From the IMG/VR virus record IMGVR_UViG_3300040751_001853: a stretch of DNA of 64,000 nt. One strand, given 5' to 3'. Origin of the DNA: a virus. This document shows positions 1 to 16,042 of the stretch, in pieces. The position numbers and the translations under genes are program-made. Position 1 is the stretch's first letter. Every line of letters starts with the position of its first letter. The notes under the pieces were generated by a model. That model did no database searches. It was not told the origin of the DNA and saw nothing but the letters and a program-made list of their open reading frames with translations.

Positions 1-336
1 CCATTGGCCATATGTAACTAACTCGTTTTCTTTCACTGGATAATTAAGTAAATCATCTATATTATTAACAATAACTTGATCTATATCCATAATAATAATA
101 TCATCGCCTGGATTTTGATATGCAAATTGAGGGCTGAAAAATTTTAGTTTATGCCAATGTTTTACTATATTACTATTGTGATTGTAAGGTAAAACTAAAT
201 CTGCTTTGACATCTGTATCACTTAAACATACAAATTGAAAATCTACCGTTGAGTTTTTTCTTAAGCTATCGTGCAATCTAGTAATGTAATCTGGTGAATA
301 GAAACCGTCAAAATATACTGTACATATTTTAAGCAT
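1..336 (-). CDS. Glycosyltransferase-like protein (GT-A fold), N-terminal part; runs off the window edge
   Basis: Not in the ORF track. Manual translation from ATG at 336 gives MLKICTVYFDGFYSPDYITRLHDSLRKNSTVDFQFVCLSD...KHWHKLKFFSP...IIIMDIDQVIVNNIDDLL, with a DxD motif. It overlaps the stop of the upstream gene. Confidence 0.7.
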   Translation of the reverse strand, partial: MLKICTVYFDGFYSPDYITRLHDSLRKNSTVDFQFVCLSDTDVKADLVLPYNHNSNIVKHWHKLKFFSPQFAYQNPGDDIIIMDIDQVIVNNIDDLLNYPVKENELVTYGQW

Positions 337-1192
337 TTAATTTTTTCCAAACAATATCAAATCTTTTATTAATTGTATGACACATTATAACTTCATCTGG
401 TACCCAAAGTTGTTTAGAGAAAAAGAAATGCCATTTAGAATCTAACCATAATACAGGTATATTATTCTCCTTTAATTTAACTGAAAATAATGTTTCATTA
501 TCCCATCCAAAGTAGTGTGTTATTTTTTTCGGCCACATATCGTGTCCATTTTTTAAACTACTCATTAAAGATAGATTGTTATCGAAATCATCAAAGTATT
601 TTAATTTAACAATATGTTCTTTATTTGCCCCAATTATGCCTGTGTTTATGACATTATTACGAGGACTTAAACCTTTTTCAAATAACATAGCTTGAGCGTT
701 ATAATATTTTGCTGTTGGACTTCTTATTGTTGTTGATGTTTCTGTAACCGATTCAATTTTTGATACCGCATCCGAATTATCTAATACTGCTATACCTTTT
801 GTTAAATCCCAATGTTCAAAGAAATTTACAAATTTCATAGGAACAACGTCAAAATCTAAATAGAGTATTTCGTCATAGTTTTTTGCTAACTCATACATCA
901 AATGTATTTTATAAAAATTAATTACATTATAGGTTGTTAAGTATGGATACTTTGTTTGTAATTTTTTTTGATAATTAATATAGTTTGAATCAAACTCAAA
1001 CATTTTAAATTCAATATTATTAGCGAAAGCGTAAGCTTGTTTGCACGCCACTAAATCATCATAATTATCTTTAAATTGACTTTTTGTTACATAGTTTATA
1101 GGAGGATCACCTTCTTTTAAAACATTTTTATCAAATATATCAAGCTCTTCTTTTGGAATGTCAATATACAAACTATAAATTACTCTTTTCAT
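329..1192 (-). CDS. Nucleotide-diphospho-sugar transferase / glycosyltransferase-like protein
   Basis: KIHLMYEL...ILYLDFDVV (DxD motif), INTGII and WDNETL motifs typical of GT-A enzymes. Confidence 0.65.
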   Translation of the reverse strand: MKRVIYSLYIDIPKEELDIFDKNVLKEGDPPINYVTKSQFKDNYDDLVACKQAYAFANNIEFKMFEFDSNYINYQKKLQTKYPYLTTYNVINFYKIHLMYELAKNYDEILYLDFDVVPMKFVNFFEHWDLTKGIAVLDNSDAVSKIESVTETSTTIRSPTAKYYNAQAMLFEKGLSPRNNVINTGIIGANKEHIVKLKYFDDFDNNLSLMSSLKNGHDMWPKKITHYFGWDNETLFSVKLKENNIPVLWLDSKWHFFFSKQLWVPDEVIMCHTINKRFDIVWKKLNA

Positions 1193-1794
1193 TTAAACTT
1201 TCCTATCAGTAAAAATCTAATACCACGCTCATCTTTAATTTGATCTTCTATCATAACTTCAGCATTATCAGGTAATTGTTTTTTAAATTCTTCTATATTC
1301 TTAGCGCAATTAATATGACCTTCTATATCAAACATATTATTTGAGGTAAATGCAAAGTATGGTTTGTTCTTTCTACATATCCATTCCCACATAGGCCATT
1401 CTTTCATAGGTGCCATATGCTCGCAAGATGTGTTTATAAAAAGATTAGCACTTCTATATTCATTTAGTTTTAAATCATCAAATATATCCTGACATCTAAA
1501 TTGCACATTTTTATAATCATAGAACAATCTATTTGTAGCAATATTAATAACTTCTTTATCTTTATCAATAAGTGTAATTTTCTTTATATGTTTATAAGCA
1601 GGTACAAATATACTGCCATACCAACTACCCATAATTACAATTTCATCTATTTTAGCATTTAGCATTTCAACATATTCTATTATTGCTCCTTTTGCTCTAA
1701 ATTGATTTACACTATATGAGTCTAGTATATCAGGATTATGCCTGCCTTCTTGTATTATTCTTTTAAATAAATCTAAATCTATTTTATCAATCAT
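1189..1794 (-). CDS. Class I SAM-dependent methyltransferase-like protein
   Basis: IVIMGSWYG motif I, IDKD motif II and INTSCEHM. Confidence 0.65.
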   Translation of the reverse strand: MIDKIDLDLFKRIIQEGRHNPDILDSYSVNQFRAKGAIIEYVEMLNAKIDEIVIMGSWYGSIFVPAYKHIKKITLIDKDKEVINIATNRLFYDYKNVQFRCQDIFDDLKLNEYRSANLFINTSCEHMAPMKEWPMWEWICRKNKPYFAFTSNNMFDIEGHINCAKNIEEFKKQLPDNAEVMIEDQIKDERGIRFLLIGKFK

Positions 1795-4664
1795 TTTCTT
1801 ATTATATAATCATTAATAACTAACAAATCTAATGCTGTTTTTTTAAATGTTCTTATTGCTTGTTCAGGTGTTTCTACTATAGGTTCTTGGCAATTAAAAC
1901 TTGTATTTAATAACATAGGTATACCTGTTATTTTGTAAAATTCATTTATGATATTGTAAAACTTTTCATTAAATTTTTTATTAACTGTTTGTATTCTGGC
2001 TGTACCATCAACGTGTGTAATACCTGGCACTTTATCTGATTTAACTTTACATATTCTACTCATATATGGGCTAGGAAATTTTGTATCAAAATATTGTTTG
2101 TAATGTTCTTCTAATACAGCTGGTGCAAATGGTCTAAAGTCTTCTCTCATTTTAATTGTACTATTAATAATATCTTTAATATCTGGATTACGTGGATCTG
2201 CAAGTATTGATCTATTACCTAATGCACGATTGCCACTTTCTGATTTGCCTTGAAACCATCCTACTATTTTACCATCAGCGATGGCCTGTGCTACTTCTTT
2301 GTAATCAACTTTTTCATTACCAATATAGTCATATTCTTTACCAGCAAATGTTTTTGATTTATGTATATTATTGTTTAGTGTATAGTTAGCGTGTTGATAT
2401 GTGCCTATTGACTGTCCTTCATCACCTACAGCTGGTGGTACAAATACGTTTTCATAATGTTTAGTAAATTCTTCATTCATATATCCGTTATAAGCAACAC
2501 CACCTGCAATACAAAGATTATTGCAAGATTTTAATGGATAAACGTGTTCTTTTATTTTATCTATAGTAAATTTTTGTAGGGTATATGCAAGGTCTTCGAT
2601 ACTATTTAATCTAATTTCTTTAAAGTGTTCTTGTTTTTTTTCGGTTATCTCACCTGCAAGTATTGTTTCAAATACATTATAATAATACTCACTATATTTT
2701 CCATATCCTACTTTACCCATAAGTTTACTTGCACCAAGTGTACCAAAGCCTGTTAAGTTTGACATATGATTCCATAGCCAACCAATAGGCAATTTATCAG
2801 ATAAATCAATTAAGTTTTTATTTTTATCAAAAAACACACATCTATATTTTGATCCTATACCATCAATTGCTAGTATATCTGATTGTTCAAAACCTGAATT
2901 AAGAAAGGCATATGCGGCGTGTGATTGATGGTGATCTATAAAGTAAAGATCATCTTTTAAATAATAGTCCCATAGTTTCTTCGGGTCATAATCAAATATA
3001 TCTTGTGGTAACTTATCTTTGCATTTTCTTATGCCGCCAAACGTATATGTAAATGCTAGAATGCCATTTGTACCATCTCTTTTATTTGTATCCCAATATT
3101 CTTCAATAAACTCATCATTTAATCTGTAATCGCTAGAATTTAATATATCTGATTGATGAGCATATGCTTCAGCGTGATAAGGTAAATTATGTTTAAATCT
3201 AGTAAATCTTTCTCTTTGATTATGAAACACACCATCATAGGTATTGTGGTCGTGTAAATTAAGTGCTACGGAATATATTTTTTTCACTCTTTTTTCTCCA
3301 TTATATTTTTTCAGTTCAGGATAGACATCAAATAAGCTTGCTTCCCATTTAGTGCCTTCATAATATTTATCTATTTTTAAAAGATAGTCAATTGTATCCA
3401 AATAAGACAGGCCACCATTATCTTCTTTTAAAATATTTTGAATATCAGGAAAGTTTTCGTACTTGTCTATAAGTACTTTCTTTAAATCATCTGGCAATAC
3501 ATTTGCACATAACTTTGCTGGTCCTCTTATATTAGACCAGTTAATTTGTTTAAATAGTTTTTTGTTTTCATCAAACCAGTTTATAAGTTCATAAAATCTT
3601 AATACACTTAAAAAAGATATTGTGCCATTTACATTTATTTGAACATTAGGATATTGCTTTACCGTTTTTATATTTTTAACTATATCTTCCCAATTTGATC
3701 TACGCCTAATATATTCATCTGTTTTACCTATACCATCAAGTGATACCGTAAATTCAAATAACTGAAAGTGTCTTATATAATCTGTAATCCTATATTTACC
3801 TTGTCCTAAAACAGACATATTAGTTTGAAATTTTAGTTTCATATGAGGAGCATGGCCTGTCTTTATAATTGCGTCAAGTAATTGATAAAATTGTTTCATA
3901 ACTAGTGGTTCACCACCAATCAATTTAAGATTATAAATGTATGGTGCAAATTCAACTATCTGACCTATAATATCTTTTATCTGGCCTTTAAAAGGATTAA
4001 GTTTAACATCATTACCGTGTTTAAGAGTCCATACATTCATAACCGTTTGACCTTCTAATTCTTTTGAGTTCAATGTTGTAGTTCTTGTAGAAGAGTCGTA
4101 AGTGTGGCACATATAACAATCTAAATTACATTGATTACCAAATGCTTTTATTTGCACTTCAAAAATTCTATCTTTTATGTGACCTGTTTTTGTTTCTTTA
4201 TAACGATTAACTGCCTTTCTTATACCTGCCCATATACCATCATCATTAGATTGTATCTTTAATGAGGCCTGTCGTCTGGATCTGCCATATTGTTTTTCTT
4301 GTTTAATACACGATACACACGATTTTTTTGTTAACTTTAAATCAGAGCCTGGTGTTGTCATTTCTTTTCGTAATTGATTTAGTTTAGGATCATTTTCAAA
4401 CCAATCTCTTATAGATGTATCTCTTATATTAGGACCAAATTCAGATGATCTAGCCCACGAGCATGGTGCATAATTACCTTGTATATCTGTAAATAATAAT
4501 TGAAAGGGTGCACCACAGAAAAATATATCTTGGTCTTTAATACTTTTATCTAATTCATCTAATATACAATTTTTAAACCATTCAGATGTATCTAATTTTC
4601 CATTGCCCAAATACTGATCACCTGGTCCTCCTTTAGTCAGATGTTTAGGTAACTTTTTACTCAT
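1791..4664 (-). CDS. Fusion of a radical SAM protein (N-terminal SPASM/twitch-like Cys domain) and a NodU/CmcH-family O-carbamoyltransferase
   Basis: CNLDCYMC (CxxxCxxC) and LKLIGGEPL in the N-half. HHQSHAAYAF, LAIDGIG, AGGVAYN, PPAVGDEG, RALGNRSILADP, RPFAP, HVDGTARIQTV and LLNTSFN in the C-half. Confidence 0.85.
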   Translation of the reverse strand: MSKKLPKHLTKGGPGDQYLGNGKLDTSEWFKNCILDELDKSIKDQDIFFCGAPFQLLFTDIQGNYAPCSWARSSEFGPNIRDTSIRDWFENDPKLNQLRKEMTTPGSDLKLTKKSCVSCIKQEKQYGRSRRQASLKIQSNDDGIWAGIRKAVNRYKETKTGHIKDRIFEVQIKAFGNQCNLDCYMCHTYDSSTRTTTLNSKELEGQTVMNVWTLKHGNDVKLNPFKGQIKDIIGQIVEFAPYIYNLKLIGGEPLVMKQFYQLLDAIIKTGHAPHMKLKFQTNMSVLGQGKYRITDYIRHFQLFEFTVSLDGIGKTDEYIRRRSNWEDIVKNIKTVKQYPNVQINVNGTISFLSVLRFYELINWFDENKKLFKQINWSNIRGPAKLCANVLPDDLKKVLIDKYENFPDIQNILKEDNGGLSYLDTIDYLLKIDKYYEGTKWEASLFDVYPELKKYNGEKRVKKIYSVALNLHDHNTYDGVFHNQRERFTRFKHNLPYHAEAYAHQSDILNSSDYRLNDEFIEEYWDTNKRDGTNGILAFTYTFGGIRKCKDKLPQDIFDYDPKKLWDYYLKDDLYFIDHHQSHAAYAFLNSGFEQSDILAIDGIGSKYRCVFFDKNKNLIDLSDKLPIGWLWNHMSNLTGFGTLGASKLMGKVGYGKYSEYYYNVFETILAGEITEKKQEHFKEIRLNSIEDLAYTLQKFTIDKIKEHVYPLKSCNNLCIAGGVAYNGYMNEEFTKHYENVFVPPAVGDEGQSIGTYQHANYTLNNNIHKSKTFAGKEYDYIGNEKVDYKEVAQAIADGKIVGWFQGKSESGNRALGNRSILADPRNPDIKDIINSTIKMREDFRPFAPAVLEEHYKQYFDTKFPSPYMSRICKVKSDKVPGITHVDGTARIQTVNKKFNEKFYNIINEFYKITGIPMLLNTSFNCQEPIVETPEQAIRTFKKTALDLLVINDYIIRK

Positions 4665-4670
4665 AAGTTT

Positions 4671-5357
4671 TTACTCGTCATCCTCAAATGAAAAGATGTC
4701 CTCAAAAGGTGGACAAGTATCTTTTTTTAAACTTTCTGGTTTCATATTTTGCCACTTATACAATTCTGCTTTACCTATTGTTTGTATTAGATATGGTGTG
4801 TACTTAATAAACTTAAAATGATTTTCTTTTGTTCTCCATTTTTGTAAGTTTTTTGGAAAACAAATATTATATGAAGTATCCCAACCTTTATCTAAAACAG
4901 CTCCTGTGATCGTTTTGGCAATCATTCCAACTTCTATAGCCCAACTTTCTCTTCCATGTGGTATAAACCATTCTTCACCCATTTCCCATCTAGTGCCTGT
5001 TTTTGCACATTGCTCTCTAGCAAACTGATTACCTGGAGCAACTCTTGGTGTGAATATTAACGTCCAAGGTGCTGTTGCTATATGAAATAGATTAGGGTTT
5101 GCTTGATATGTAAATCCTTTTTTCTGTACATCACCATCAAAACTTATTTTATTGCCTTCACATAGGTCATATAAAATTTTACTTCTTTCTGCATTTGGTC
5201 CTAACACATACGCTTTGTAAGGAAAGGCTTTTTGTTTTGATGTTGCTAATGGATATCCTATTCTCAATATCTCCTCTATTTGTAATCTAGTAGGAATAAT
5301 ATCTTTTTTATAATGAACAACGTGGGCTCTTTTTTTTAATGAATCAGTTATACTCAT
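4671..5357 (-). CDS. Nitroreductase-like (FMN-binding) protein
   Basis: LKKRAHVVHY N-terminal motif, SKQKAFPYKAYVLGP, and IEVGMIAKTITGAVLDKGWDTSYNICF matching the nitroreductase fold. Confidence 0.6.
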   Translation of the reverse strand: MSITDSLKKRAHVVHYKKDIIPTRLQIEEILRIGYPLATSKQKAFPYKAYVLGPNAERSKILYDLCEGNKISFDGDVQKKGFTYQANPNLFHIATAPWTLIFTPRVAPGNQFAREQCAKTGTRWEMGEEWFIPHGRESWAIEVGMIAKTITGAVLDKGWDTSYNICFPKNLQKWRTKENHFKFIKYTPYLIQTIGKAELYKWQNMKPESLKKDTCPPFEDIFSFEDDE

Positions 5358-6202
5358 AATACCCTCGCATATTTTGATACTGGAAAATGACCTTTAGGTT
5401 CAACCCATTCCATACAATTTTTACAATAATTTTCATACTTAAATAATCTAAAATTCATCATCTTGTCTATATTCTCCTGTGTTATGTCAAATGTTTTTGA
5501 ATGTATAATATTATTAGCAAATTTCTTACTACAATGTACAATCTTTCTTGTTTCAAAGTTGATAACAGGCACCATAGGAAAAGCTGCACACATCTTACGA
5601 TCTATTTCTGCAGCCTGAGTATGTACTGCCAATACATCATCTTTATTAGGTGTTCTACCATTAAATGATTTCCACATTGTATTTTTGTGATCTAACTGTT
5701 TCATTTCTTCTGGAAAGTTATCTTTGTATTTAAAATAATTAGGTGTCTTTACGCATAGATTGTAATTATTGTATTCATTTGGTTGTATGAAACCGTAAGG
5801 TGGTAGTAAATCTAAACTACCAAGTTTTTTAATTTCGTTTTCATAAAAATCTAATATATTATGTTCAATATAAAGTATATCAGAATCTTTTAGTATATGT
5901 GGATATCTTTTACGTACAAAGGAGTTTGATAGTACTGAACATACGTGATTAGGTCTACTTTTAACTTCAGCAATAACATCATCTAAATTTTTAATTAGGC
6001 CTGGCTCACCACCTAGAAGACAAACACGTATCTTATAATTTTTTAAATAGTCTAGTGTTTGTTTTAGGAAATCCATATCAACTGTCAAGTTTCTCATTTC
6101 TAAAGTATAGCTTGTACAGTAATGGCAATCTTTATTACAAGACATAGACATAAAAAAATCTATGGCTAAATAGTTTTCTTGTATTTCTTTTAATGTTTTC
6201 AT
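5354..6202 (-). CDS. Radical SAM protein with C-terminal Cys cluster
   Basis: CNKDCHYC, LLGGEPGL, and C-terminal CAAF...HCSK...CKNC. Confidence 0.85.
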   Translation of the reverse strand: MKTLKEIQENYLAIDFFMSMSCNKDCHYCTSYTLEMRNLTVDMDFLKQTLDYLKNYKIRVCLLGGEPGLIKNLDDVIAEVKSRPNHVCSVLSNSFVRKRYPHILKDSDILYIEHNILDFYENEIKKLGSLDLLPPYGFIQPNEYNNYNLCVKTPNYFKYKDNFPEEMKQLDHKNTMWKSFNGRTPNKDDVLAVHTQAAEIDRKMCAAFPMVPVINFETRKIVHCSKKFANNIIHSKTFDITQENIDKMMNFRLFKYENYCKNCMEWVEPKGHFPVSKYARVL

Positions 6203-6516
6203 ATTGTAAACTTATCAAAAAAGAATTTATTTAATGCTACTAATAGTTTTTGTTTGGCTTGATCTTTGAAATTTAATTCTTCAAATATATAATCTGGCCT
6301 TTCGTAGGCCTTTTCTATTATATAATGATAGATGTCCTCAATGTCATCTGCTATCAAAGACTTATCAAGCACTATATCATTACCAAAAATATATTTCATT
6401 TTTTTAATTAACTCTAAAAGTCTAAAAGGTATTTTATCTGTTATGTCAATCATATTATTGTTACTATCAAAATAACAGAAAGTTTTAAAAGATGGACTAA
6501 TTATTATTTCATTCAT
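6199..6516 (-). CDS. Hypothetical protein
   Basis: ATGA-coupled to both neighbours; no recognisable motif. Confidence 0.6.
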   Translation of the reverse strand: MNEIIISPSFKTFCYFDSNNNMIDITDKIPFRLLELIKKMKYIFGNDIVLDKSLIADDIEDIYHYIIEKAYERPDYIFEELNFKDQAKQKLLVALNKFFFDKFTI

Positions 6517-7565
6517 ACTGTTGCCATAATTATATTACAAGTATTATCTATTTCATCATTTGTTAAATATGGATGAATAGGTAATGTTAGTATTGTATCA
6601 CATATTTGTTGACTATTCAAGCAGCTATCTTTTCTATGTATAATAGAATTATACATTACATTTTCCGATATAGGATTAGGATAGTGTACAGCTGCACCTA
6701 GTCTTTTCTTTAAGGTTTCTCTTATTTCTTTATTTTTAACTCTAATAACATATTTGTGATAACAATGATTAACACCTTCATCAATTTTTTGAAGGGTAAC
6801 TATATCTTTTAAATTATTATCATATCTTTTAGCTATTCTAAATCTCTTATCTTGCCATTCGTGCATTTTGTCTATTCTAAAATTAATAAATTCAGCATTG
6901 ATTGCTAACATTTTAGAGTTAAATCCTAATACTTCATTATTACCGTGTCTTCTTAATTTTCTAATAAAGTCTGCTTGAGTTTTGTTGTCTAATAAAACAG
7001 CACCACCACCTGCAATCCCAGCAACAGGCTTATTTGCGTTAAAACTTAATGTTGCAATGTCACCATATGTTCCTGCATATTGACCATTTCTGTTTGCACC
7101 AAATGATTGACAAGCATCCTCTATTAGTTTTATATTTTTTTCTTCACAAAAGTTTTGTATTTCTGTCATATCAGATATGTTGCCAAACAGGTGTGGGTAC
7201 ACTATTGCCTTTACTTTATCAGAATACATACGTTTAATACTATCAATTGACATATGATAAGTTTCTAAATCAACATCACAAAATACAGGTGTTGCACCTA
7301 CCATCGTTATACAAGAGGCTGTAGATATCCAAGAAAAGTTTGTAGTCATTATCTCATCGCCAGGTCCTAGATTAAGTGCCATTAGAGCAAAACGTAGAGC
7401 GTCTGTGCCACTAGCACACGTTACAGCATATTTTCTATTAATAATTTTTAAAATATGTTTTTCTAAAAATTCAACGTTTCTTTCGTTTTCTTTTTGCATA
7501 ACATTATCAAAAAGCTTTAAGTATTCATCTTTGTTTGCTATATAATCTTTATACCAACTATCCAT
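6513..7565 (-). CDS. DegT/DnrJ/EryC1/StrS PLP-dependent sugar aminotransferase
   Basis: SGTDAL, GATPVFCDVD, IEDACQSFGA and SFNANKP (PLP lysine). Confidence 0.92.
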   Translation of the reverse strand: MDSWYKDYIANKDEYLKLFDNVMQKENERNVEFLEKHILKIINRKYAVTCASGTDALRFALMALNLGPGDEIMTTNFSWISTASCITMVGATPVFCDVDLETYHMSIDSIKRMYSDKVKAIVYPHLFGNISDMTEIQNFCEEKNIKLIEDACQSFGANRNGQYAGTYGDIATLSFNANKPVAGIAGGGAVLLDNKTQADFIRKLRRHGNNEVLGFNSKMLAINAEFINFRIDKMHEWQDKRFRIAKRYDNNLKDIVTLQKIDEGVNHCYHKYVIRVKNKEIRETLKKRLGAAVHYPNPISENVMYNSIIHRKDSCLNSQQICDTILTLPIHPYLTNDEIDNTCNIIMATV

Positions 7566-8355
7566 TATCTTTACCTATTATGTTATAATCTTTTAATAAC
7601 TTATTTATTTTATTACTAATAGCTATATGTCCTAGTTTATTTGGGTGATTGTCAATTACGGATACTCTTTGTGGTGATTTTTTATTTTCCCATAGATCAA
7701 GTTTATCTTTAAATCTCCATCCTCCAAGTTTTTGTACAGGAGGCCATCCCATAAATTTAGATGTATCTAATTTGTTTTCATAGTCCATTATAGATTTTAA
7801 TATAATTGATTCGTCTTTTGTTTTATTTCCTGGATATTTACTTTGAGTATTAGGATCCGCTCCAAAATGAACATCATTTTGACTTGGCTTAATACCTTCT
7901 AAATAATGTTCAAAAAGTTCTATCATTTGAAATTGAACATAAGGTATATTATATCTCTCACATAGTATTTGAAAATCTAAATAATGTCCTAAAGACTTTT
8001 CAACCCACCACGGTAGGTTACCATGTGTATCAATTCTCAAATTTTTCCAATTTGACCTCATAATAGTATCTTCTTTATAATCCTTTCTTGGAGCTTGTGA
8101 CCAAGCAGCAATAACTAAACCAATTTGACTTTTATCGTCTATCTTAACTATTTCATCTCGTAAAGTCGTATAGATAAATTCATTGCCTTGTCCCGACCTA
8201 GCCATGTTGATAACTTTCATACCTAATTTTTCTGATAATAATTCAGGCCATTTTTTGTAACTAAAATCCATATCTGGATGAGATATAGAATCAAAGTCAT
8301 CTGTTGTATTACTATCGCCACTAACTATCAGATACTTCATTGAATGCTCTTTCAT
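7558..8355 (-). CDS. SGNH/GDSL hydrolase-like protein (probable start at 8340)
   Basis: IVSGDSNT block I, NMARSGQGN block II and DNHPN block V. Confidence 0.7.
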   Translation of the reverse strand: MKEHSMKYLIVSGDSNTTDDFDSISHPDMDFSYKKWPELLSEKLGMKVINMARSGQGNEFIYTTLRDEIVKIDDKSQIGLVIAAWSQAPRKDYKEDTIMRSNWKNLRIDTHGNLPWWVEKSLGHYLDFQILCERYNIPYVQFQMIELFEHYLEGIKPSQNDVHFGADPNTQSKYPGNKTKDESIILKSIMDYENKLDTSKFMGWPPVQKLGGWRFKDKLDLWENKKSPQRVSVIDNHPNKLGHIAISNKINKLLKDYNIIGKDNG

Positions 8356-9067
8356 ATATGAATTCAGCTATTTTTTGTTGTCCAGCTGCATTAGGATGCC
8401 TATCTAATTCTGATATTTTATGTTCTTCTTTTAACACACTAAACTCTAAACTAAATCCTCCTAATTCTTCATCAGTTGGCCAATTAAGGTGTTTATCATT
8501 AAATTTGTATTTTGTGCTTTTTAGGGTTTCAAGTGTTTCATTTTTTAATTTTTTATATAAAGGACCTAAAACTATATTATTAGTATTTAATTTTAAATCT
8601 TTACTGTTGTTTTTTTCATATTGTTGTTTGTTTATTTCCCACAAATGTCCTCTATATAAACTTATCATTTGAAAATGTATGTAAGGAAGTTTTTCTTGTT
8701 TTAAAAGATTTTGAAAGGCATATTGATACCTAATGCTTCTATTTATCCAATAAATTAAATCACCTTTCACATCTTGTCTGTCATTTGTCCACTTATTCTT
8801 TACTTGAAAACAACGTCTAGGTGCTGTAGACCAAGCAGCTATAACTATACCAATTTCATCTTTAGGTGTGCTTTGTATATAATCTGATATAGATGAATAA
8901 ATATACTCTTGTCCTGCACCACATTTACAAAGATTAACACACTCCATGTTTAGTTTTTCTGCCAACAGTTCTGGCCATTTAGGCCAATCACAATCCATTT
9001 CAGGATGAAATGATGAAATAAAGTTTTTATCTCCCCAACTACATCCACTAACTATTAATTTTTTCAT
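8321..9067 (-). CDS. SGNH/GDSL hydrolase-like protein, paralogue of 7558-8355
   Basis: IVSGCSWGD, NLCKCGAGQ and DRHPN; shares KWPELLxEKLxM and IAAWSxAPR with its neighbour. Confidence 0.7.
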   Translation of the reverse strand: MKKLIVSGCSWGDKNFISSFHPEMDCDWPKWPELLAEKLNMECVNLCKCGAGQEYIYSSISDYIQSTPKDEIGIVIAAWSTAPRRCFQVKNKWTNDRQDVKGDLIYWINRSIRYQYAFQNLLKQEKLPYIHFQMISLYRGHLWEINKQQYEKNNSKDLKLNTNNIVLGPLYKKLKNETLETLKSTKYKFNDKHLNWPTDEELGGFSLEFSVLKEEHKISELDRHPNAAGQQKIAEFIYERAFNEVSDS

Positions 9068-9438
9068 ACTTTGTTTTTTACTATTGATTTACCTTTTTCG
9101 TCTAAATGATGTTCTATTTTTATATTATCGTTTGGTCTAACTAGACAATGATATAAACAGTTTCTAGGCACTCTACTATGGTCACCTGCCTCACCTTCTT
9201 TCATTATTTTTTCAAATTCTCTCCATTCATCTGATAATACTATTTCATCTATGTTTTCTACATCACTTACTTTACTAACCTTTAACATTTTTTGAAATAA
9301 AGGTGTATTTAATGTCCATTCTTGGTCGCACCAACAACAAGGTAATAAATGACCTCTATTACTCATAGCCATTTGCATTTTACCATTCATACATTGAGCA
9401 ACAAATTTACCTTCTAATTTATCTTTTTTATCTTTCAT
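9064..9438 (-). CDS. Stand-alone SPASM/twitch-like Fe-S domain protein
   Basis: C...MSNRGHLLPCCWCD...NCLYHC cysteine pattern. Confidence 0.7.
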   Translation of the reverse strand: MKDKKDKLEGKFVAQCMNGKMQMAMSNRGHLLPCCWCDQEWTLNTPLFQKMLKVSKVSDVENIDEIVLSDEWREFEKIMKEGEAGDHSRVPRNCLYHCLVRPNDNIKIEHHLDEKGKSIVKNKV

Positions 9439-10084
9439 AAGGTCTAATATATCCTTTATATCCTAAATTATATTCTTTTTCCTTTGGTCTTAATGGATCA
9501 TCTTCTCCCATCCAACGTGATGAATGTAAAATAATAAACATTAAACCATTATCTTTAGCCATTTGTTTTGCCTTTTCTAAATTGTGTTCGTTATAACTAA
9601 ACACTATAAACTGCCATGATGGCGTTTGTTGTAAATGTTTCTTTGCCTCTAACATAACCTCATATAACTTTTGACCATCTTGGTTGATACGATACATATT
9701 ACTTTCTTCGGGTAAACCATCTATTGCAAATATCCATTTTGCTTTAGTATGGGCTTTAAATGCTTTTATATACCAGTCTTTAGGCTTTTGTGATGAGGCA
9801 TTATGTACTGTAACTTGTGTTCCTTTTTTATAAAGATATTCTAATATTTCAACAAATTTAGGATGATGTACAGGATCAGATAATTGACCACAGAAATTAA
9901 ATGATGAAAAATAATCAGATAACTTTTTAATTTCATCCATCGTAGCATCCCGACCATAAACTTTTCTGCCTTCAAGTGTAAAGTTGGTCTGTCTTTGACA
10001 TCTCATACACTCTAGTGGACACCTATTACTTATGTCAATGTTTATACCTTTTTTTGATCTTCTATAAAATGATATATCGCTCAT
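9428..10084 (-). CDS. Radical SAM core protein (no C-terminal SPASM)
   Basis: CPLECMRC, FCGQLSDP and FAIDGL. Confidence 0.85.
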   Translation of the reverse strand: MSDISFYRRSKKGINIDISNRCPLECMRCQRQTNFTLEGRKVYGRDATMDEIKKLSDYFSSFNFCGQLSDPVHHPKFVEILEYLYKKGTQVTVHNASSQKPKDWYIKAFKAHTKAKWIFAIDGLPEESNMYRINQDGQKLYEVMLEAKKHLQQTPSWQFIVFSYNEHNLEKAKQMAKDNGLMFIILHSSRWMGEDDPLRPKEKEYNLGYKGYIRPYER

Positions 10085-10422
10085 TTACCTTTTCTTTCAA
10101 ACATATTACCAGATGGATCAAACCATTCTTCTATTTTTAGTTTATCTTCACCATCATCTAAACAATGATGTTTACATACTGCAGGTATTTTGTCTAAATC
10201 ACCTTCTTTTAAAGTATTATAAAACTCTTTCCATTCATCTGAAGTTATTATATCTTTTAAACTTTTATTTTTACTTATGTCACTAACATTTAATAACTTT
10301 TTAATTTCAGGATATTCAATCCATTTAGGTGTATCAATATAACAACAAGGTAATAATCTACCTCTATTATCTATAGCCATTTGTGTAGTTGATGATAAAC
10401 ATTTAGGCCTAAACTTTGTCAT
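10081..10422 (-). CDS. Stand-alone SPASM/twitch-like Fe-S domain protein
   Basis: KCL...IDNRGRLLPCCYID...VCKHHC; paralogue of 9064-9438. Confidence 0.7.
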   Translation of the reverse strand: MTKFRPKCLSSTTQMAIDNRGRLLPCCYIDTPKWIEYPEIKKLLNVSDISKNKSLKDIITSDEWKEFYNTLKEGDLDKIPAVCKHHCLDDGEDKLKIEEWFDPSGNMFERKGK

Positions 10423-11128
10423 AACCTTTATCCTTATATTGCTCTGACCATATACTGTAATCTTTGTTTCTAGGTCTTAGCAGATCATCTTCAGAAAACC
10501 ATTTTGATGAATAGGTTAAATTAAAATTTAGACCATTTTTTTTTGCTAATTCTCTTGCCTCATCTATATCATTTTCATTGTATCTGAATATAATGTATTG
10601 CCAACAAGGCGTAGTATTTAAATGTTTTTTTGACTCAATCATTATATTAAAAAGTTTTTCACCATCTTGGTTAATTCTATATAAACAACTGTCTTCAGGC
10701 AGACCATCTATACCAAATATCCATCTCATATCAGGATGTGATTTGAAAGCTTCTATGTACCATTCTTTAGATTTTAACGAAGACGCATTGTGAATTGTGC
10801 CACCTACGTTTTTCATTTTACATAATTTTAATATATCAATAAAATATTCGTTGTGAACAGGATCAGATAATTGGCCACAAAAATTAATTGTTTTAAACAT
10901 ATCAGTTATTTTAATGAAGTCATCTACTGTTAAATCGTGGCCAGGTATATCTTTGTTATTTGCATAGTAAGTTTGTCTTTGACATCTAGGACATTCTAAT
11001 CCACATCTAGCTGATAAATCAACATTAACACCAGGATTTTCTCCGACATCTCTTGTAAAGAATTGTTGGTGGAAGAATGATGATAATTGTGGTTTTATTT
11101 TGTTTATGAATTTTTCATTGTTATACAT
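10409..11128 (-). CDS. Radical SAM core protein, paralogue of 9428-10084
   Basis: CGLECPRC, FCGQLSDP and FGIDGL. Confidence 0.85.
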   Translation of the reverse strand: MYNNEKFINKIKPQLSSFFHQQFFTRDVGENPGVNVDLSARCGLECPRCQRQTYYANNKDIPGHDLTVDDFIKITDMFKTINFCGQLSDPVHNEYFIDILKLCKMKNVGGTIHNASSLKSKEWYIEAFKSHPDMRWIFGIDGLPEDSCLYRINQDGEKLFNIMIESKKHLNTTPCWQYIIFRYNENDIDEARELAKKNGLNFNLTYSSKWFSEDDLLRPRNKDYSIWSEQYKDKGYDKV

Positions 11129-11979
11129 TTTATTAAATTATCAATTTTATTTTGTTGTTTTGTCAAACAGATTGCAGGCCTATTCCAATAAACACTACCT
11201 CCATCTTTTTTATATTTATCCCTTAAATAAATGACCTCTTTTTTGAGCCATCTAAACTCCATGAATAGTCTAGGTGCAGGATCAAAGTTAGGTTTTGTAT
11301 AGACATATGTTTCAAACTTACCTAATACATTTGTGATTGGCACCATTAGATTGTTTAGTTTAGGGTTTATAAATTTGTCATTGTATGTTATAATACCGTG
11401 ATCAGGATAATTGTGTATGTGTTTTTCTACTTCTCTATAATATATTTCATTTGTGCCTAAAAACAAATACTTAAATTGTATATCTTCTTTTACAGGTTTG
11501 TATATACTAAAGTTTATTATCTTTTCAAATTGTTCTCCCATACCATTAACATATACATCATGGTCGCATAAGTCATAAACTTTTTTAGGTTTGAAATATT
11601 GTAACGCAATAGGATATTCTTTAACATGATTTTCAGAATATACAGATATAAGATTGCCACTAAACAATAAATGTAAAGTTAGAAGTTGATCATTATTGTA
11701 AGTATGTTTATTTAAGTATGCTAAAGTCAGCTGACTTCTTCCCATAATCAATGTTATATCGTTTGATGTGGGTGTGTAAAAATCAAATATTACATTTTCA
11801 TATTTGACATAACATTCATTTAGAGCATTGATGTAAGATTGTTCAGAAAATCTATGGTCTCTTATAATTATTAGTTTTGCTTTTATACCTAAATCATTCA
11901 GAAAACAACAATGTTCATAACTATAATGTAGAAGACCATCACCAGGTTTAGTTGTACATACTATATTTACATTTTTCAT
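11104..11979 (-). CDS. Hypothetical protein, possibly GT-B glycosyltransferase-like; first gene of the leftward operon
   Basis: Long ORF directly after a consensus promoter. C-terminal YVYTKPNFDPAPRLFMEF loosely resembles a GT-B nucleotide-binding segment. Confidence 0.45.
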   Translation of the reverse strand: MKNVNIVCTTKPGDGLLHYSYEHCCFLNDLGIKAKLIIIRDHRFSEQSYINALNECYVKYENVIFDFYTPTSNDITLIMGRSQLTLAYLNKHTYNNDQLLTLHLLFSGNLISVYSENHVKEYPIALQYFKPKKVYDLCDHDVYVNGMGEQFEKIINFSIYKPVKEDIQFKYLFLGTNEIYYREVEKHIHNYPDHGIITYNDKFINPKLNNLMVPITNVLGKFETYVYTKPNFDPAPRLFMEFRWLKKEVIYLRDKYKKDGGSVYWNRPAICLTKQQNKIDNLIKCITMKNS

Positions 11980-11984
11980 ACTAT

Positions 11985-12013
11985 ATTATAACACATTTTA
12001 TAAAAACCGTCAA
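11985..12013 (-). promoter_or_regulatory. Sigma70-type promoter for the leftward operon
   Basis: Minus strand TTGACG-N17-TATAAT, with the ATG (11979) following after 5 nt. A late-type GATAAATA lies just upstream at 12015-12022 (minus). Confidence 0.8.
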
Positions 12014-12024
12014 GTATTTATCGT

Positions 12025-12031
12025 CTAAATA
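12025..12031 (+). promoter_or_regulatory. T4 late-promoter-like element (CTAAATA)
   Basis: Variant of TATAAATA located 5 nt before the ATG at 12037. Confidence 0.5.
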
Positions 12032-12036
12032 ACTAT

Positions 12037-12654
12037 ATGAGTTACAGTAGATTATTGACATATGGTGATGTTATACCTTTAAGATTCAAGTGTAATCCAG
12101 ATAAGTTATTTGAAGAGGTTAAAGACTTTAAATTCCATCAATATAATCCTAGAAAAGACATACCGAGAAACGGTTTAAGTATTACAAGTTTAAACGGTGA
12201 ATTAGATGGTATTGATTTAGACTCAATACCTGAATATAATAAAGAAAACAATGTACATTATACTGAGGCTGATTTTAATACTGTAACAGACGTATATCAT
12301 AAAAGTGAAGAAGTACAAAAAATAGTTGATCCTTGGAAGAGATATATTTGCAGATCACACATATTACATTTACCAGAAGGTGGTTATTTTCCACCTCATA
12401 GAGATTTGCCTGTTTTTAGTGATCAACAAAAAAGTATGAGAATATTGATTCCTCTGAAAGAGTGTAATCCACCATTTATGTATTTTATACATGATGGTAA
12501 GACATTAAATTTTGAACATGGTAGAGCATATTTTGTTAATACTAATAAAATGCATAGTCTATTTTCATTTAGAGATAGTTATATGATAGTGTTAAATGTA
12601 CAAAGTAATGACATTACATATAAAATCATAGGTGACAACTTTTTACATTCATAA
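12037..12654 (+). CDS. AspH/LpxO-like 2OG-Fe(II) oxygenase
   Basis: PPHRD (HxD), RILIPL and distal KMHSLF. Confidence 0.8.
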   Translation: MSYSRLLTYGDVIPLRFKCNPDKLFEEVKDFKFHQYNPRKDIPRNGLSITSLNGELDGIDLDSIPEYNKENNVHYTEADFNTVTDVYHKSEEVQKIVDPWKRYICRSHILHLPEGGYFPPHRDLPVFSDQQKSMRILIPLKECNPPFMYFIHDGKTLNFEHGRAYFVNTNKMHSLFSFRDSYMIVLNVQSNDITYKIIGDNFLHS

Positions 12655-12658
12655 ATAT

Positions 12659-12666
12659 TATAAATA
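12659..12666 (+). promoter_or_regulatory. T4 late promoter TATAAATA
   Basis: Exact consensus upstream of 12743. Confidence 0.75.
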
Positions 12667-12742
12667 GTAAATATTATAATGCCTCAAAAGGTGAAAATGC
12701 ACTTGACGGCAATTATATAAATTAATAATAAAGGAAAATAAC

Positions 12743-13045
12743 ATGAGTACAACTTTTAAATTAGTACAGACAAGACCTACAACTGATGTTCAGTTTTGGG
12801 AAATAACTGACTCTGCCGTTTTAGCTAAATTTGAAGAATATAAAACTAGTGGAGATATAATTAGTTATGATTTTACAGGAACAACTACTGCTGATGGATT
12901 AACAAATACAAAACATGTTGTAGTTAAAGATGGTATTTCGATCTCAAGTTTAATAGCAAACGATCCAGTACTATCTCCATTTACAGCAAAACGTGAGCAA
13001 CATTGTATTAACAATAATATATCATATAGTTTAGAATCAGAGTAA
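12743..13045 (+). CDS. Hypothetical protein (100 aa)
   Basis: AAGGA RBS and own late promoter; no recognised motif. Confidence 0.75.
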   Translation: MSTTFKLVQTRPTTDVQFWEITDSAVLAKFEEYKTSGDIISYDFTGTTTADGLTNTKHVVVKDGISISSLIANDPVLSPFTAKREQHCINNNISYSLESE

Positions 13046-13051
13046 TATATT

Positions 13052-13681
13052 ATGGAATATTTTATTATGTTATTGGTGGGTTTTATATGGTATCAGTTTA
13101 TTGCTATGTTTGGTCTGTCAATAGGCCTACATAGAAAATTTGCCCACAAACAATTTGAAACACCTAAATGGTTTGAGGCAGCTGTTTTATATCTTGCTAT
13201 GTTAGCAGGTAGTAGATCACCACTAGGTTGGGTAGGCGCTCACAGAATACACCACAGACATTCAGATACGGAAGAAGATCCACATAGTCCATTACATAAA
13301 GGTTTTTGGAATGTGTTGGTAAATAACTGGAGAGTAAAACAAATACCTAGGCATTATGTAAGGGATCTATATAAGAATCCTCGTATAATGTTTTTTCATA
13401 AACATTGGTTAAAACTGCATATTGCAACAGCAGTTATAACGCTATTAATAAGTGTACCATTGTTTATTATGTTTGTTCTATCACCTTTAGTGTTAGGTTT
13501 CGTAAGTTACGGAATCTTTAATGCGTTAGGACATAATGATGGTAAACCAGTATATAACTGGTTGATAGGAATTTTATCTGCAGGTGAAGGACACCATGAT
13601 GTTCATCACGCAAATCCTGGGCAGGTACAATTAAGTAAATACGATTTTGCAGGATTAGTTGCTAAAAAACTTTTTATATAA
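13052..13681 (+). CDS. Membrane fatty acid desaturase (delta-9/OLE1-like)
   Basis: Three His boxes HRKFAH, HRIHHRH and HHDVHH, plus DPHSP and hydrophobic helices. Confidence 0.88.
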   Translation: MEYFIMLLVGFIWYQFIAMFGLSIGLHRKFAHKQFETPKWFEAAVLYLAMLAGSRSPLGWVGAHRIHHRHSDTEEDPHSPLHKGFWNVLVNNWRVKQIPRHYVRDLYKNPRIMFFHKHWLKLHIATAVITLLISVPLFIMFVLSPLVLGFVSYGIFNALGHNDGKPVYNWLIGILSAGEGHHDVHHANPGQVQLSKYDFAGLVAKKLFI

Positions 13682-14262
13682 TGACCTTTGATAGAAATAG
13701 TAGTACAGAATGGGTGTCCATGGACTTTAATGTTCCTTGTGATACCATATTAGAAGAATACAATTCAATAAAAGATAATTTAATAATTCATAGACCAGAA
13801 GATGGTCACAAAGATTGGTTCGCTGTAACTCTTTATGGTTTTGGCTCTGATAAGACAAATAGTCATTGGGAGTATAGACAAAAAGGATTAAAACCTTTTA
13901 CTACAGATATAGGTGAAAAATGCACTAATACTATGAATTGGGTAAAAAGTTTACCATACTCACGTATAGATGATGTAAGATTTTTGGTAATAAAACCTAA
14001 AGGTTATATTGCAAAACATATTGATATACCTGAACAAAATTGGCTTGAACCTTTAAATATAAGTATTACCTATCCAGAAGGTAACAAGTTTATTTTAAAT
14101 AACAAAGAATTGAAATATGAGCCTGGTATGAGTGTAGTTTTAAATATACATTATGAGCATTATGTTGAAAATAATTCGGATGAAGAACGAATACACTTAT
14201 TAGTGCATGGCAAAAAAACGAAAGAATTTTATAATTATGTTAAAACCTTTGCACAGCCATAA
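13681..14262 (+). CDS. AspH-like 2OG-Fe(II) oxygenase
   Basis: KHID, EHYVEN and ERIHLLVHG. Confidence 0.8.
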   Translation: MTFDRNSSTEWVSMDFNVPCDTILEEYNSIKDNLIIHRPEDGHKDWFAVTLYGFGSDKTNSHWEYRQKGLKPFTTDIGEKCTNTMNWVKSLPYSRIDDVRFLVIKPKGYIAKHIDIPEQNWLEPLNISITYPEGNKFILNNKELKYEPGMSVVLNIHYEHYVENNSDEERIHLLVHGKKTKEFYNYVKTFAQP

Positions 14263-14752
14263 ACCAGCTACAAGTATTACTTTTATACCTAAAGACAGAC
14301 CTGATATAATTCAACAGTTAAGTAAAATAACTTTTGATAGTAAGGATAAGCTTTATAAAAATTATGTGGATATGAATTGGTTATCTTTTGAAGCAATTAG
14401 TATATACACAATGAAAGATGAGATTGTAGGATTTTCAACTATATTAAAGAGAGATAAATACTTTGATAAAAATGAAGTGAGAATATTAAATAGATACTAT
14501 GAAATGCCTAAAATGAGAAGAACATCAAAAATTATAGCAGACGACCACGTTTGCGAAATGGTTTTACAACAAATAGATATAGCAAAAAAACTAGGCTATT
14601 CCAAAATCTTTATTAGTAGAGAGAAGTCTTTACGATACTTTAAAAAGTTTATATATAACTTAGGACAAAAAACAAATACTATTTGGAATGTATCTGATAT
14701 AAAGATACAAGTTTCACATGGTAGTGAGCAATACAAGGCAAGATTATGTTAA
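14237..14752 (+). CDS. GNAT / acyltransferase-like protein (start likely 14237 rather than 14207)
   Basis: EIVGFSTI...EVRILNRYY...IDIAKKLGYSKIFISRE pattern resembling the GNAT/LuxI-type fold. Confidence 0.5.
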   Translation: MLKPLHSHKPATSITFIPKDRPDIIQQLSKITFDSKDKLYKNYVDMNWLSFEAISIYTMKDEIVGFSTILKRDKYFDKNEVRILNRYYEMPKMRRTSKIIADDHVCEMVLQQIDIAKKLGYSKIFISREKSLRYFKKFIYNLGQKTNTIWNVSDIKIQVSHGSEQYKARLC

Positions 14753-15573: not shown

Positions 15574-16042
15574 TTATATTGAAACTAATTACAATACTGA
15601 CAAAAAGTTTTTTAAATCATATATTAATAATAAGTGGGAAGATAGTAATGTTTTATATAAAGAGTATATGTCCTGGGAGAATAATAAATTTTTTGTACAA
15701 GAAATAAAAGATTTTGATAGGCCTTTATTAAGAGAAATAAAAAAAATATGGAATTATTTAGGAATAAGACCTAAAGAATGGAGATGTAATTTTTTTAGAG
15801 TTCTTCCTGGTGGTGAATTACCTTTACACGTTGATGTATTGAGTAAAAGTTCAGTTGTTATTCCAGTAACGGAAATGACGGGACCTTTATATTTTGGCGA
15901 CGGCACGGAAGTGTTATATCAAAATATGACAGTAATTAATACAAAAGTAGCTCACGGTGTAAAAGCACCTACAGTTGAAAGAATAGTCTTTCATATGGGA
16001 TTGCATGACATACCTTTTGAAGATATAAAAACAAATGATTAA
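15566..16042 (+). CDS. AspH-like 2OG-Fe(II) oxygenase
   Basis: PGGELPLHVD, AHGV and ERIVF. Confidence 0.78.
   Translation: MSNYIETNYNTDKKFFKSYINNKWEDSNVLYKEYMSWENNKFFVQEIKDFDRPLLREIKKIWNYLGIRPKEWRCNFFRVLPGGELPLHVDVLSKSSVVIPVTEMTGPLYFGDGTEVLYQNMTVINTKVAHGVKAPTVERIVFHMGLHDIPFEDIKTND

Follow-up and report, generated by a model that had tools for sequence, protein, structure and literature searches.

A conserved radical SAM, aminotransferase, carbamoyltransferase and glycosyltransferase cassette in the host recognition cluster of a T4-like SAR11 phage: a proposed pathway for sugar tailoring and transfer

Pelagimyophages, the myoviruses of SAR11 bacteria, possess a 'host recognition cluster' (HRC) in which GT8 glycosyltransferases, lipopolysaccharide (LPS)-type genes and variable 'radical SAM cassettes' have been recorded and left undissected, and for which a modification of the host O-chain has been suggested (PMC7029224). 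A phage enzyme of the NodU family is known to carbamoylate 5-hydroxymethylcytosine (5hmC) in DNA and travels with a thymidylate-synthase-type hydroxymethylase and a dCMP deaminase; carbamoyltransferases also occur beside glycosyltransferases in unmodified contigs (PMC8670742). In the cyanomyophage S-SCSM2R, ORF305 of the AHBA_syn/DegT family adjoins the radical S-adenosylmethionine (radical SAM, rSAM) gene ORF306, and the two have been read as 'antibiotic synthesis genes' (PMC12801897). Here we analyse a cassette of rSAM, sugar-modifying and glycosyltransferase genes at one end of a viral DNA stretch of 64,000 nucleotides, IMG/VR record IMGVR_UViG_3300040751_001853 (the whole stretch is hereafter called the window). 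The cassette consists of 15 consecutive minus-strand open reading frames (ORFs) in the ORF listing of the window, running from 11979 down to 1 and numbered g1 (11979-11104) to g15 (336-1).

The cassette and the published HRC are the same genomic region, beside the tail-fibre genes and, in relatives, between these and VrlC. Because the plus-strand genes of the window encode tail fibres, terminase, tail sheath, portal, scaffold, major capsid, a UvsW-type helicase and a gp46-type nuclease, it represents a T4-like myovirus, and we identify it as a T4-like pelagimyophage. Its nearest GenBank phage, Pelagibacter phage Mosig EXVC030M (MT647606; Kyanoviridae; host HTCC1062), holds a shorter, syntenic block that is a minimal version of the cassette. 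New in comparison with the HRC paper are an invariant ten-gene core, a fusion-backed coupling of rSAM and DegT genes, a fusion of an N-twitch rSAM enzyme with a carbamoyltransferase, split twitch genes and an adjacent gene of the short-chain dehydrogenase/reductase (SDR) type. The cassette belongs among the phage auxiliary glycan-modification clusters and is set apart by its modular twitch-rSAM chemistry and its rSAM-DegT-carbamoyltransferase core; the libraries and literature that we searched hold no characterised example of this core module. Literature searches on twitch rSAM enzymes with sugar aminotransferases, or on rSAM enzymes with nonulosonic acids or carbamoyltransferases, found nothing relevant. 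We consider it likely, with some reserve, that the cassette encodes a cytoplasmic pathway for tailoring and transferring a host-derived sugar within the host recognition cluster of this T4-like SAR11 phage, with the host lipid A-core or LPS as the favoured acceptor and virion proteins in second place.

Several features indicate that the genes form a unit. Thirteen of the 14 junctions from g1 to g15 overlap, seven of them as 4-nt overlaps of the ATGA type, and the single gap between cassette genes measures 6 nt (4665-4670), in agreement with an initial annotation made from the sequence alone, which had described at least 15 minus-strand genes, most of them overlapping or ATGA-coupled. All other real genes of the window lie on the plus strand, and apart from GTG shadow frames no further long minus-strand ORFs were found in its 64 kb. 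Querying IMG/VR with g12 gave 48 loci (labelled L below), to which one from Mosig was added; 23 loci, Mosig among them, span g1 to g15. These 23 all share, in the same order, g1, at least one rSAM core with its twitch partner, DegT, g9, g10, the carbamoyltransferase, the methyltransferase, g14 and g15 (ten genes); since several of the loci are near-duplicates, the number of independent variants is nearer a dozen. A synteny comparison among related phages had been proposed as a check, and the ten families are not randomly reshuffled; the comparison supports the view that the block is one conserved functional unit and not a chance neighbourhood.

Around this core the gene content varies. SGNH genes are present in 21 of the 23 loci (0-2 copies) and nitroreductase genes in 19 (0-3 copies), an N-twitch rSAM gene, whether fused, free-standing or moved elsewhere, occurs in seven, and four have a second core/twitch pair. 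Each phage therefore has two to four rSAM enzymes: 15 loci have two, and the window, with four, is the richest version. A contig from an RNA library (run X16) joins position 8347 to 11183 through 1,660 unrelated letters; it derives from a co-occurring strain in which the segment g2-g6 is swapped for a shorter cassette, presumably of the single-pair type seen in L006. The unit reaches past the left edge of the window, because in relatives g15 is succeeded by conserved ORFs (L006:15167-18800 and equivalents), namely one of 188-192 aa and, between it and VrlC, convergent ORFs with lengths of 170, 243, 313 and 276 aa. The 243-aa product is an SDR epimerase/dehydratase, the sole PF01370 gene in three related genomes and located beside the cassette in 33 loci. 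As g15 (1-336) is itself truncated by the window edge and the unit continues beyond it, 12 kb is a lower bound on the cassette.

The rSAM, aminotransferase and carbamoyltransferase genes, together with the small genes associated with them, are as follows.

10409..11128, minus strand: g2 (239 aa), rSAM core (CGLECPRC), paralogue of g4, without an auxiliary domain of its own; PHROG 21308 at 6e-13 and weak NCBIfam matches of the SPASM-maturase type
10081..10422, minus strand: g3 (113 aa), stand-alone twitch/SPASM-type Cys domain (C8, C26/27, C83, C87), partner of g2; Pfam SPASM at 1.3e-6 and the twitch part of NF033640 at 5e-4
9428..10084, minus strand: g4 (218 aa), rSAM core (CPLECMRC); PHROG 21308 at 1.3e-13 and NCBIfam SPASM/twitch enzyme families at 2.5e-8 to 3e-3
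9064..9438, minus strand: g5 (124 aa), stand-alone twitch-type Cys domain, partner of g4 and paralogue of g3
6513..7565, minus strand: g8 (350 aa), DegT/DnrJ/EryC1 pyridoxal-phosphate aminotransferase for a sugar or cyclitol; Pfam PF01041 at 3e-80, 270.6 bits (cut-off 19.8)
6199..6516, minus strand: g9 (105 aa), small conserved protein of no family; present in 23/23 relatives, no Pfam match
5354..6202, minus strand: g10 (282 aa), compact rSAM enzyme whose C-terminal part carries a 4-Cys motif of the twitch type, suggested to act together with DegT; CNKDCHYC with C205, C224, C260 and C263
3303..4523, minus strand: g12 residues 48-454, rSAM enzyme with N-terminal twitch (N_Twi_rSAM); NF033640 at 3.9e-87, 292.9 bits (cut-off 170 bits), model positions 3-397 of 398
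1794..3266, minus strand: g12 residues 467-957, NodU/TobZ-type O-carbamoyltransferase; Carbam_trans_C at 2e-67 and Carbam_trans_N at 7e-18

The DegT gene and the g10-type rSAM gene are genetically coupled by adjacency and by fusion, also outside the phage clade. A profile of the g10 family was searched against 1.84 billion representatives and gave about 270 clusters, from which eight distant members (24-28% identity) were inspected. Two of these are fused to DegT (P0217, 641 aa; P0203, 443 aa) and four more adjoin a DegT gene, while the other company of the eight comprises NodU-type carbamoyltransferases (4), DUF6071 proteins (2) and GT1/GT4 enzymes (2). For instance, a 316-kb contig combines an rSAM-DegT fusion with three more rSAM genes, DUF6071, a carbamoyltransferase, a GT1 enzyme and an NDP-sugar epimerase/dehydratase. 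On another contig, which also has a CMP-sugar synthetase close behind the S74 domain, an rSAM-DegT pair directly follows a Peptidase_S74 tail-fibre gene. A locus in a Bdellovibrionales metagenome-assembled genome (L059; JANOYW010000080.1, 1-20885) encodes about seven paralogous g12N- or g4-like rSAM enzymes together with NeuB, a carbamoyltransferase of the NodU type and a CMP-sugar synthetase; a membrane protein of 742 aa that contains an LPG_synthase_TM domain is also encoded there. This locus is a possible cellular counterpart of the phage cassette.

Across 10 homologues of g8 the Schiff-base lysine (K179, within SFNANK) never varies, and it is aligned with that of 7b0d, so that the position is not the His of the dehydratase subgroup. 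The best match in the Protein Data Bank (PDB) is this same 7b0d, a Gln--scyllo-inositol transaminase (5e-59), followed by QdtB and WbpE and further by NtdA, KdnA and BtrR; the nearest solved relatives are thus sugar or cyclitol aminotransferases that act downstream of a dedicated dehydrogenase. At the level of NCBIfam equivalogs g8 remains below the cut-offs, both for PseC (189.6 bits, 8e-56, against 423.5) and for the LegC-like family (164.7 against 420). In Mosig (419 aa) and L011 (424 aa), g9 forms a C-terminal extension of the g8 homologue.

Four CxxxCxxC rSAM cores, in g2, g4, g10 and the N-terminal part of g12, bear out the number of radical SAM domains given by the initial annotation, which had also named the carbamoyltransferase, DegT, nitroreductase and methyltransferase that profile, Pfam and PDB matches now confirm. 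The Pfam Radical_SAM model is matched above cut-off by g10 (39.6 bits) and g12 (42.9 bits). Each of the four is accompanied by a twitch-type auxiliary-cluster motif, which for two of them is encoded as a separate small gene. In g10, CNKDCHYC and C205/C224/C260/C263 are kept across the phage family, and all seven cysteines are found in 17-18 of 18 distant representatives. Its weak PDB profile matches are a viperin-like protein (3e-4) and BtrN (0.04, covering the N-terminal 70 residues only). A Foldseek search with an AF2 model of low confidence (predicted local distance difference test, pLDDT, 59.8) listed AbmM, viperin and BtrN, the last at rank 4 with a template modelling (TM) score of 0.43-0.48. 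These best, though weak, neighbours of g10 are all rSAM enzymes acting on small molecules.

The other rSAM enzymes are modular. In L043 (5189-6325) core and twitch form a single 378-aa protein with the core first, which is why we pair g2 with g3 and g4 with g5. Separate core and twitch genes are known in both orders, and the twitch gene precedes the core gene in four loci; the window arrangement (9064-11128) can be compared with the fused L043:5189-6325 and with L046:4758-5841, L011:6998-8057 and L018:333-1392. In g12 (window 1791-4664), the N-twitch rSAM part (C50, C68, C116 and C119, then CNLDCYMC) is fused to the carbamoyltransferase, a fusion found in at least six independent contigs including the window. 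The same rSAM enzyme is a separate, overlapping gene of 476 aa in L020 (1070-4010) and L023 (5428-8368), has moved behind g15 in L037 (13750-15036) and L039, and is absent from 16 of the 23 relatives. The carbamoyltransferase part combines a Kae1-like Carbam_trans_N domain (65.7 bits, cut-off 24) with a YrdC-like Carbam_trans_C domain (226 bits, cut-off 27), matches PHROG 1601 (2e-108, profile 7-527 of 528) and finds GdmN, NovN and TobZ in the PDB at about 1e-47 (TobZ 6e-47).

Seen against described systems, a compact rSAM enzyme with a 4-Cys motif beside DegT recalls BtrN with BtrS/BtrR of butirosin biosynthesis, and the TobZ match of the carbamoyltransferase recalls tobramycin. Unlike those pathways, the cassette has no 2-deoxy-scyllo-inosose synthase, is set in a phage and includes three glycosyltransferases, and the similarity of g10 to BtrN is weak (E and TM as above, with a poor model). 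The adjacent DegT and rSAM genes also resemble the desosamine pair DesI/DesII, which acts on one nucleotide sugar and suggests another sequence in which g8 and g10 might work. DesII is not known to have an auxiliary cluster, in contrast to the conserved 4-Cys motif of g10, and no DesII-type NCBIfam match was obtained for g10. T4-like cyanophages share with the cassette the LPS-type clusters of auxiliary sugar-modifying genes in marine myoviruses, with the DegT-rSAM pair of S-SCSM2R as an example; no carbamoyltransferase or multi-rSAM arrangement was reported for that phage (PMC12801897). No function is assigned to the N_Twi_rSAM family NF033640; its member in the cassette forms a fusion with the carbamoyltransferase, and the bacterial relatives that we found cluster with further rSAM genes, NeuB and a CMP-sugar synthetase.

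The glycosyltransferases and the remaining tailoring genes complete the cassette.

11104..11979, minus strand: g1 (291 aa), first gene, candidate compact GT-B glycosyltransferase (GT4/GT1-like); language-model lead and weak structural neighbours
8321..9067, minus strand: g6 (248 aa), GDSL/SGNH-like (DUF6071-like) putative hydrolase or acyl-modifying enzyme; family alignment
7558..8355, minus strand: g7 (265 aa), paralogue of g6 and likewise GDSL/SGNH-like; taken singly it matches Lipase_GDSL at E 0.034, below cut-off
4671..5357, minus strand: g11 (228 aa), putative flavoprotein of the nitroreductase fold; profile match to PDB 3gfa at 1.7e-7
1189..1794, minus strand: g13 (201 aa), class I SAM-dependent methyltransferase; profile match to PDB 1dus at 1.4e-5
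329..1192, minus strand: g14 (287 aa), GT8-like GT-A glycosyltransferase with the DxD motif LDFD; orthologue matches and a GT8 lead from the ESM Atlas
1..336, minus strand: g15 (first 112 of about 239 aa), GT-A glycosyltransferase (DID motif); PHROG 1962 'glycosyltransferase' at 1.7e-10

The initial annotation counted two to three glycosyltransferases, and three putative ones are assigned here from weaker matches than those of the enzymes above. The g14 protein of the window has no Pfam match; six of its 11 orthologues (56-69% identical) match Glyco_transf_8 (PF01501, best 3.3e-8), and the LDFD motif (D113, D115) is invariant. Full-length orthologues of g15, itself assigned through PHROG 1962, have 239-276 aa. 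For g1 there is no Pfam, NCBIfam or PDB sequence match; a feature search in the ESM Atlas leads to Glycos_transf_1 clusters, and the nearest Atlas folds of its AF2 model (pLDDT 60.9) outside its own clusters are all GT4 enzymes (TM 0.40-0.46). A Foldseek search of g1 against the PDB gave no match at E <=0.001, and GT-B folds were mixed with UbiX-type Rossmann folds. PDB sequence profile searches gave no usable match for g1, g6/g7, g14 and g15.

The two SGNH proteins named by the initial annotation are upheld in part: G13, S15, D235, H237 and P238 are invariant in the family alignment, where the spacing is DxH and not DxxH, and Lipase_GDSL is matched by four of 19 family members (best 2.5e-5), but the two copies in the window stay below the Pfam thresholds. 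For g7, the Atlas lead is SGNH/DUF6071. The g11 profile also matches 3ge6 (6.5e-4) and iodotyrosine deiodinase (3.6e-3), and among relatives a nitroreductase of the g11 type co-varies with the N-terminal rSAM part of g12. For g13, Methyltransf_31 (1.4e-3) lies below cut-off, and the profile also matches spermidine synthase and KsgA folds. Membrane-type segments are absent from all 15 products, in which no hydrophobic 19-residue window reaches >=1.4, and all are therefore predicted to be soluble.

The cassette is preceded by a promoter-like element.

11985..12013, minus strand: sigma-70-type promoter TTGACG-17-TGtTATAAT; 11/12 matches with TG extension, in the 57-bp divergent intergenic gap

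This is the top-scoring minus-strand sigma-70-like site in 1-13000. Promoter-like sites overall occur at chance level in this AT-rich DNA (95 found, 90 expected); terminator-like sites are likewise at chance level (5 found, 3.3 expected). Both hexamers, the TG extension and the distance to the ATG of g1 are kept in eight related loci (the window, L006, L013, L022, L034, L039, L042 and L048), while the spacer sequence has diverged. The -10 hexamer ends 5 nt ahead of the g1 ATG in the window and 3-6 nt ahead in all eight, so that the first mRNA would be leaderless or nearly so; between the -10 element and the ATG these loci have no space for a Shine-Dalgarno sequence. The single consensus promoter of the initial annotation is thus supported as a conserved, near-consensus extended -10 site and not as the sole promoter.

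Sequence data from the environment show that the cassette is present in nature in this exact form. At least 14 DNA runs from estuaries and seawater contain it, and six metatranscriptome runs contain parts of it; contigs of four metatranscriptome runs cover it, and depth along the window is very uneven, unlike flat carry-over of DNA, which gives a weak hint of RNA origin. The metatranscriptome contigs are much deeper at 12.7-14 kb and 16.7-20 kb than over the cassette, and we used neither the low cassette depth nor any uncovered bins as evidence. The g10 protein falls into more than 1,000 clusters at 90% identity in public metagenomes, one of them found on 196 contigs.

From the gene content, its conservation, the fusions and the neighbourhoods we infer a series of chemical steps. 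The pathway would probably start from a host-made activated sugar, because the relatives encode no sugar-activating enzyme. The invariant trio g8/g9/g10 may install or relocate an amino group on a sugar or cyclitol ring. In one possible route, a BtrN-like radical oxidation would convert a hydroxyl to a ketone that is then transaminated, following the logic of BtrN with BtrS or WbpB with WbpE; in the other, the DesI/DesII order would apply, with transamination followed by radical deamination (deoxygenation). Additional tailoring of a redox or epimerase type could be provided by g2 with g3, g4 with g5 and the N-terminal part of g12, for which the nitroreductase-fold protein g11 is a possible redox helper or electron partner of the twitch rSAM enzymes. 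The C-terminal part of g12 would O-carbamoylate the sugar, g13 would methylate it, and the SGNH-like g6 and g7 may add or remove acyl groups. Finally, the soluble g1 (GT4-like), g14 (GT8-like) and g15 (GT-A) are suggested to transfer the product to its acceptor on the cytoplasmic side.

As acceptor we tentatively rank the host envelope first (lipid A-core or LPS, that is, a remodelling of the infected-cell surface), a preference held at somewhat under even confidence. GT4 and GT8 enzymes together with a NodU-type carbamoyltransferase are the typical make-up of LPS-core clusters. The divergent neighbours of the cassette, LpxO-family oxygenases and a membrane fatty-acid desaturase, lean the same way, as do the Bdellovibrionales genome with its roughly seven related rSAM genes, carbamoyltransferase, NeuB and CMP-sugar synthetase, and the sigma-70-type promoter, which reads the cassette opposite to the late structural genes. 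The same pathway could instead serve virion glycosylation, where the soluble glycosyltransferases would decorate tail fibres or structural proteins before assembly and thereby alter adsorption, stability or recognition; we hold this to be unlikely, though it deserves serious weight. In every case the cassette lies in the structural host recognition cluster, with VrlC on one side and the tail-fibre genes on the other, one distant rSAM-DegT pair directly follows a tail-fibre gene of the Peptidase_S74 type, and all enzymes are soluble, with no lipid-carrier or export step encoded. The cassette-like gain and loss of tailoring genes (two to four rSAM enzymes) also fits recognition-driven selection, and virion glycosylation with DegT-type enzymes is known from phages and giant viruses. 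Against it, most relatives read the cassette from the conserved sigma-70-type promoter on the strand opposite all late structural genes, no acceptor motif or glycoprotein is known for pelagimyophages, and GT8 and GT4 enzymes are more typical of LPS-core assembly. Two loci, Mosig and L037, have TATAAATA, a late-type motif, ahead of the cassette instead of the sigma-70-type promoter, which speaks for the virion.

Other products and targets are much less probable. A free pseudo-oligosaccharide resembling an aminoglycoside or nucleoside antibiotic and acting on the host or its competitors would explain why the toolkit mirrors aminoglycoside logic (BtrN-like twitch rSAM, DegT of the BtrS/scyllo-inositol type, TobZ-like carbamoyltransferase and GT4-like transferase), and the DegT-family/rSAM pair of a cyanomyophage has been read in that sense (PMC12801897). 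We nevertheless regard it as very unlikely: the cassette shows no cyclitol synthase or other scaffold-forming enzyme, genes for export or self-resistance are missing, the resemblance does not go beyond the superfamily level, and the benefit to a lytic phage is hard to see. Hypermodification of phage DNA, in which the glycosyl- and carbamoyltransferases would decorate bases to give, for example, 5-carbamoyloxymethylcytosine or glycosylated hydroxymethylcytosine (hmC), is reminiscent of T-even phages, which glycosylate hmC, and an early-type promoter would suit a DNA-modifying function. The phage NodU/TobZ-family enzyme that carbamoylates 5hmC is the closest precedent (PMC8670742). That enzyme pairs with a hydroxymethylase, whereas PF00303 (thymidylate synthase/hydroxymethylase) and TGT/DpdA are absent from three related genomes, Mosig, G002 and the 100%-complete G003; a control search for PF00303 was positive in 10 of 14 genomes. 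A search for Tet_JBP gave no match, and neither did its control. The dCMP deaminase is also absent from the relatives, the cassette has glycosyltransferases as neighbours, which is the pattern of unmodified contigs (PMC8670742), and restriction-modification is rare in SAR11 (PMC7029224). A DNA target is therefore extremely improbable, and the decorated glycan envisaged by the initial annotation is retained for sugar tailoring and transfer, with which the gene content fits, but disfavoured for its DNA option. Equally improbable is the maturation of a ribosomal peptide or phage protein through cross-linking or oxidation by SPASM/twitch rSAM enzymes, as in ribosomally synthesised and post-translationally modified peptides. 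In NCBIfam, SPASM peptide maturases and enzymes of the anSME type are weakly matched by g2, g4 and g12 (N-terminal part). Since 13 of 14 junctions overlap and the lone gap measures 6 nt, a precursor gene could not be accommodated; the short ORFs rich in Cys encode twitch domains, which in L043 belong to the same protein as the core, and both points make such a role unlikely. Moreover, g9 is a DegT extension in some phages, no RRE/PqqD domain was found in the cassette proteins, and the invariant partners are sugar enzymes.

Several observations weigh against the pathway and the host envelope acceptor that we favour. None of the four rSAM enzymes has an equivalog-level match, and AF2 modelled g10 and g1 poorly (pLDDT 59.8 and 60.9), with weak fold matches (TM 0.4-0.46). 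Weak or transitive matches point to g1 as what is probably a compact GT4-like GT-B enzyme, and matches of the same kind suggest, weakly, that g6 and g7 are SGNH enzymes. A nucleotidyltransferase (NTP_transferase), CTP_transf_3/CMP-sugar synthetase and NeuB are absent from the three genomes named above. Among the 15 products there is no flippase, polymerase or lipid-carrier transferase as a sign of a Wzx/Wzy- or ABC-type locus, and the cassette consequently does not amount to a complete surface-polysaccharide system by itself. The arguments for LPS are circumstantial, and the adjacency of tail-fibre genes fits virion glycosylation equally well; the late-type motif in Mosig and L037 belongs with these points, and the metatranscriptome contigs give neither strand nor level, transcript ends or gene ranking.

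A nonulosonic-acid pathway was also considered. It was suggested by the PseC- and LegC-like best matches, by NeuB and the CMP-sugar synthetase in the Bdellovibrionales genome and by a CMP-sugar synthetase in one phage-like contig. We dropped it because NeuB, CTP_transf_3 and NTP_transferase are missing from Mosig, G002 and G003 and g8 scores below the PseC and LegC equivalog cut-offs.

The surroundings of the cassette include a divergent plus-strand operon (12037-16703) directly upstream of the tail-fibre genes. It encodes at least two Asp_Arg_Hydrox oxygenases of the LpxO/AspH family (13681-14262 and 14746-15573, plus strand) and a membrane FA_desaturase-like protein (13052-13681, plus strand). 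Further along, a giant protein of 2,568 aa resembling a tail fibre or baseplate wedge (20535-28241) has several long GTG shadow ORFs (up to 381 aa) on its opposite strand, which are probably not genes.

For a phage, the load of Fe-S radical enzymes is high, as the initial annotation had remarked, and it matches no characterised pathway; a phage of an aerobic, streamlined host here invests in up to four oxygen-labile Fe-S enzymes. A further-reaching proposal, which we consider rather doubtful, is that the g10-type compact twitch rSAM enzyme is an obligate partner of DegT in a radical route to amino or deoxy sugars, apart from the routes that use NAD-dependent dehydrogenases and 4,6-dehydratases. 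Such a route might yield a previously undescribed, hypervariable, carbamoylated amino sugar on SAR11 cells or pelagimyophage virions, whose variants (two to four rSAM enzymes) would tune phage-host or phage-phage recognition in what is the most abundant bacterium of the ocean. The pathway is testable because the cassette occurs in the cultured pair Mosig/HTCC1062. SAR11 bacteria and their myophages rank among the most abundant biological entities of the sea. If the proposed pathway is true, it would represent a new enzymatic pairing of twitch rSAM and DegT for sugar amination or deoxygenation, would give the N_Twi_rSAM family a function, and would give concrete molecular access to superinfection exclusion or the decoration of virions in the open ocean.

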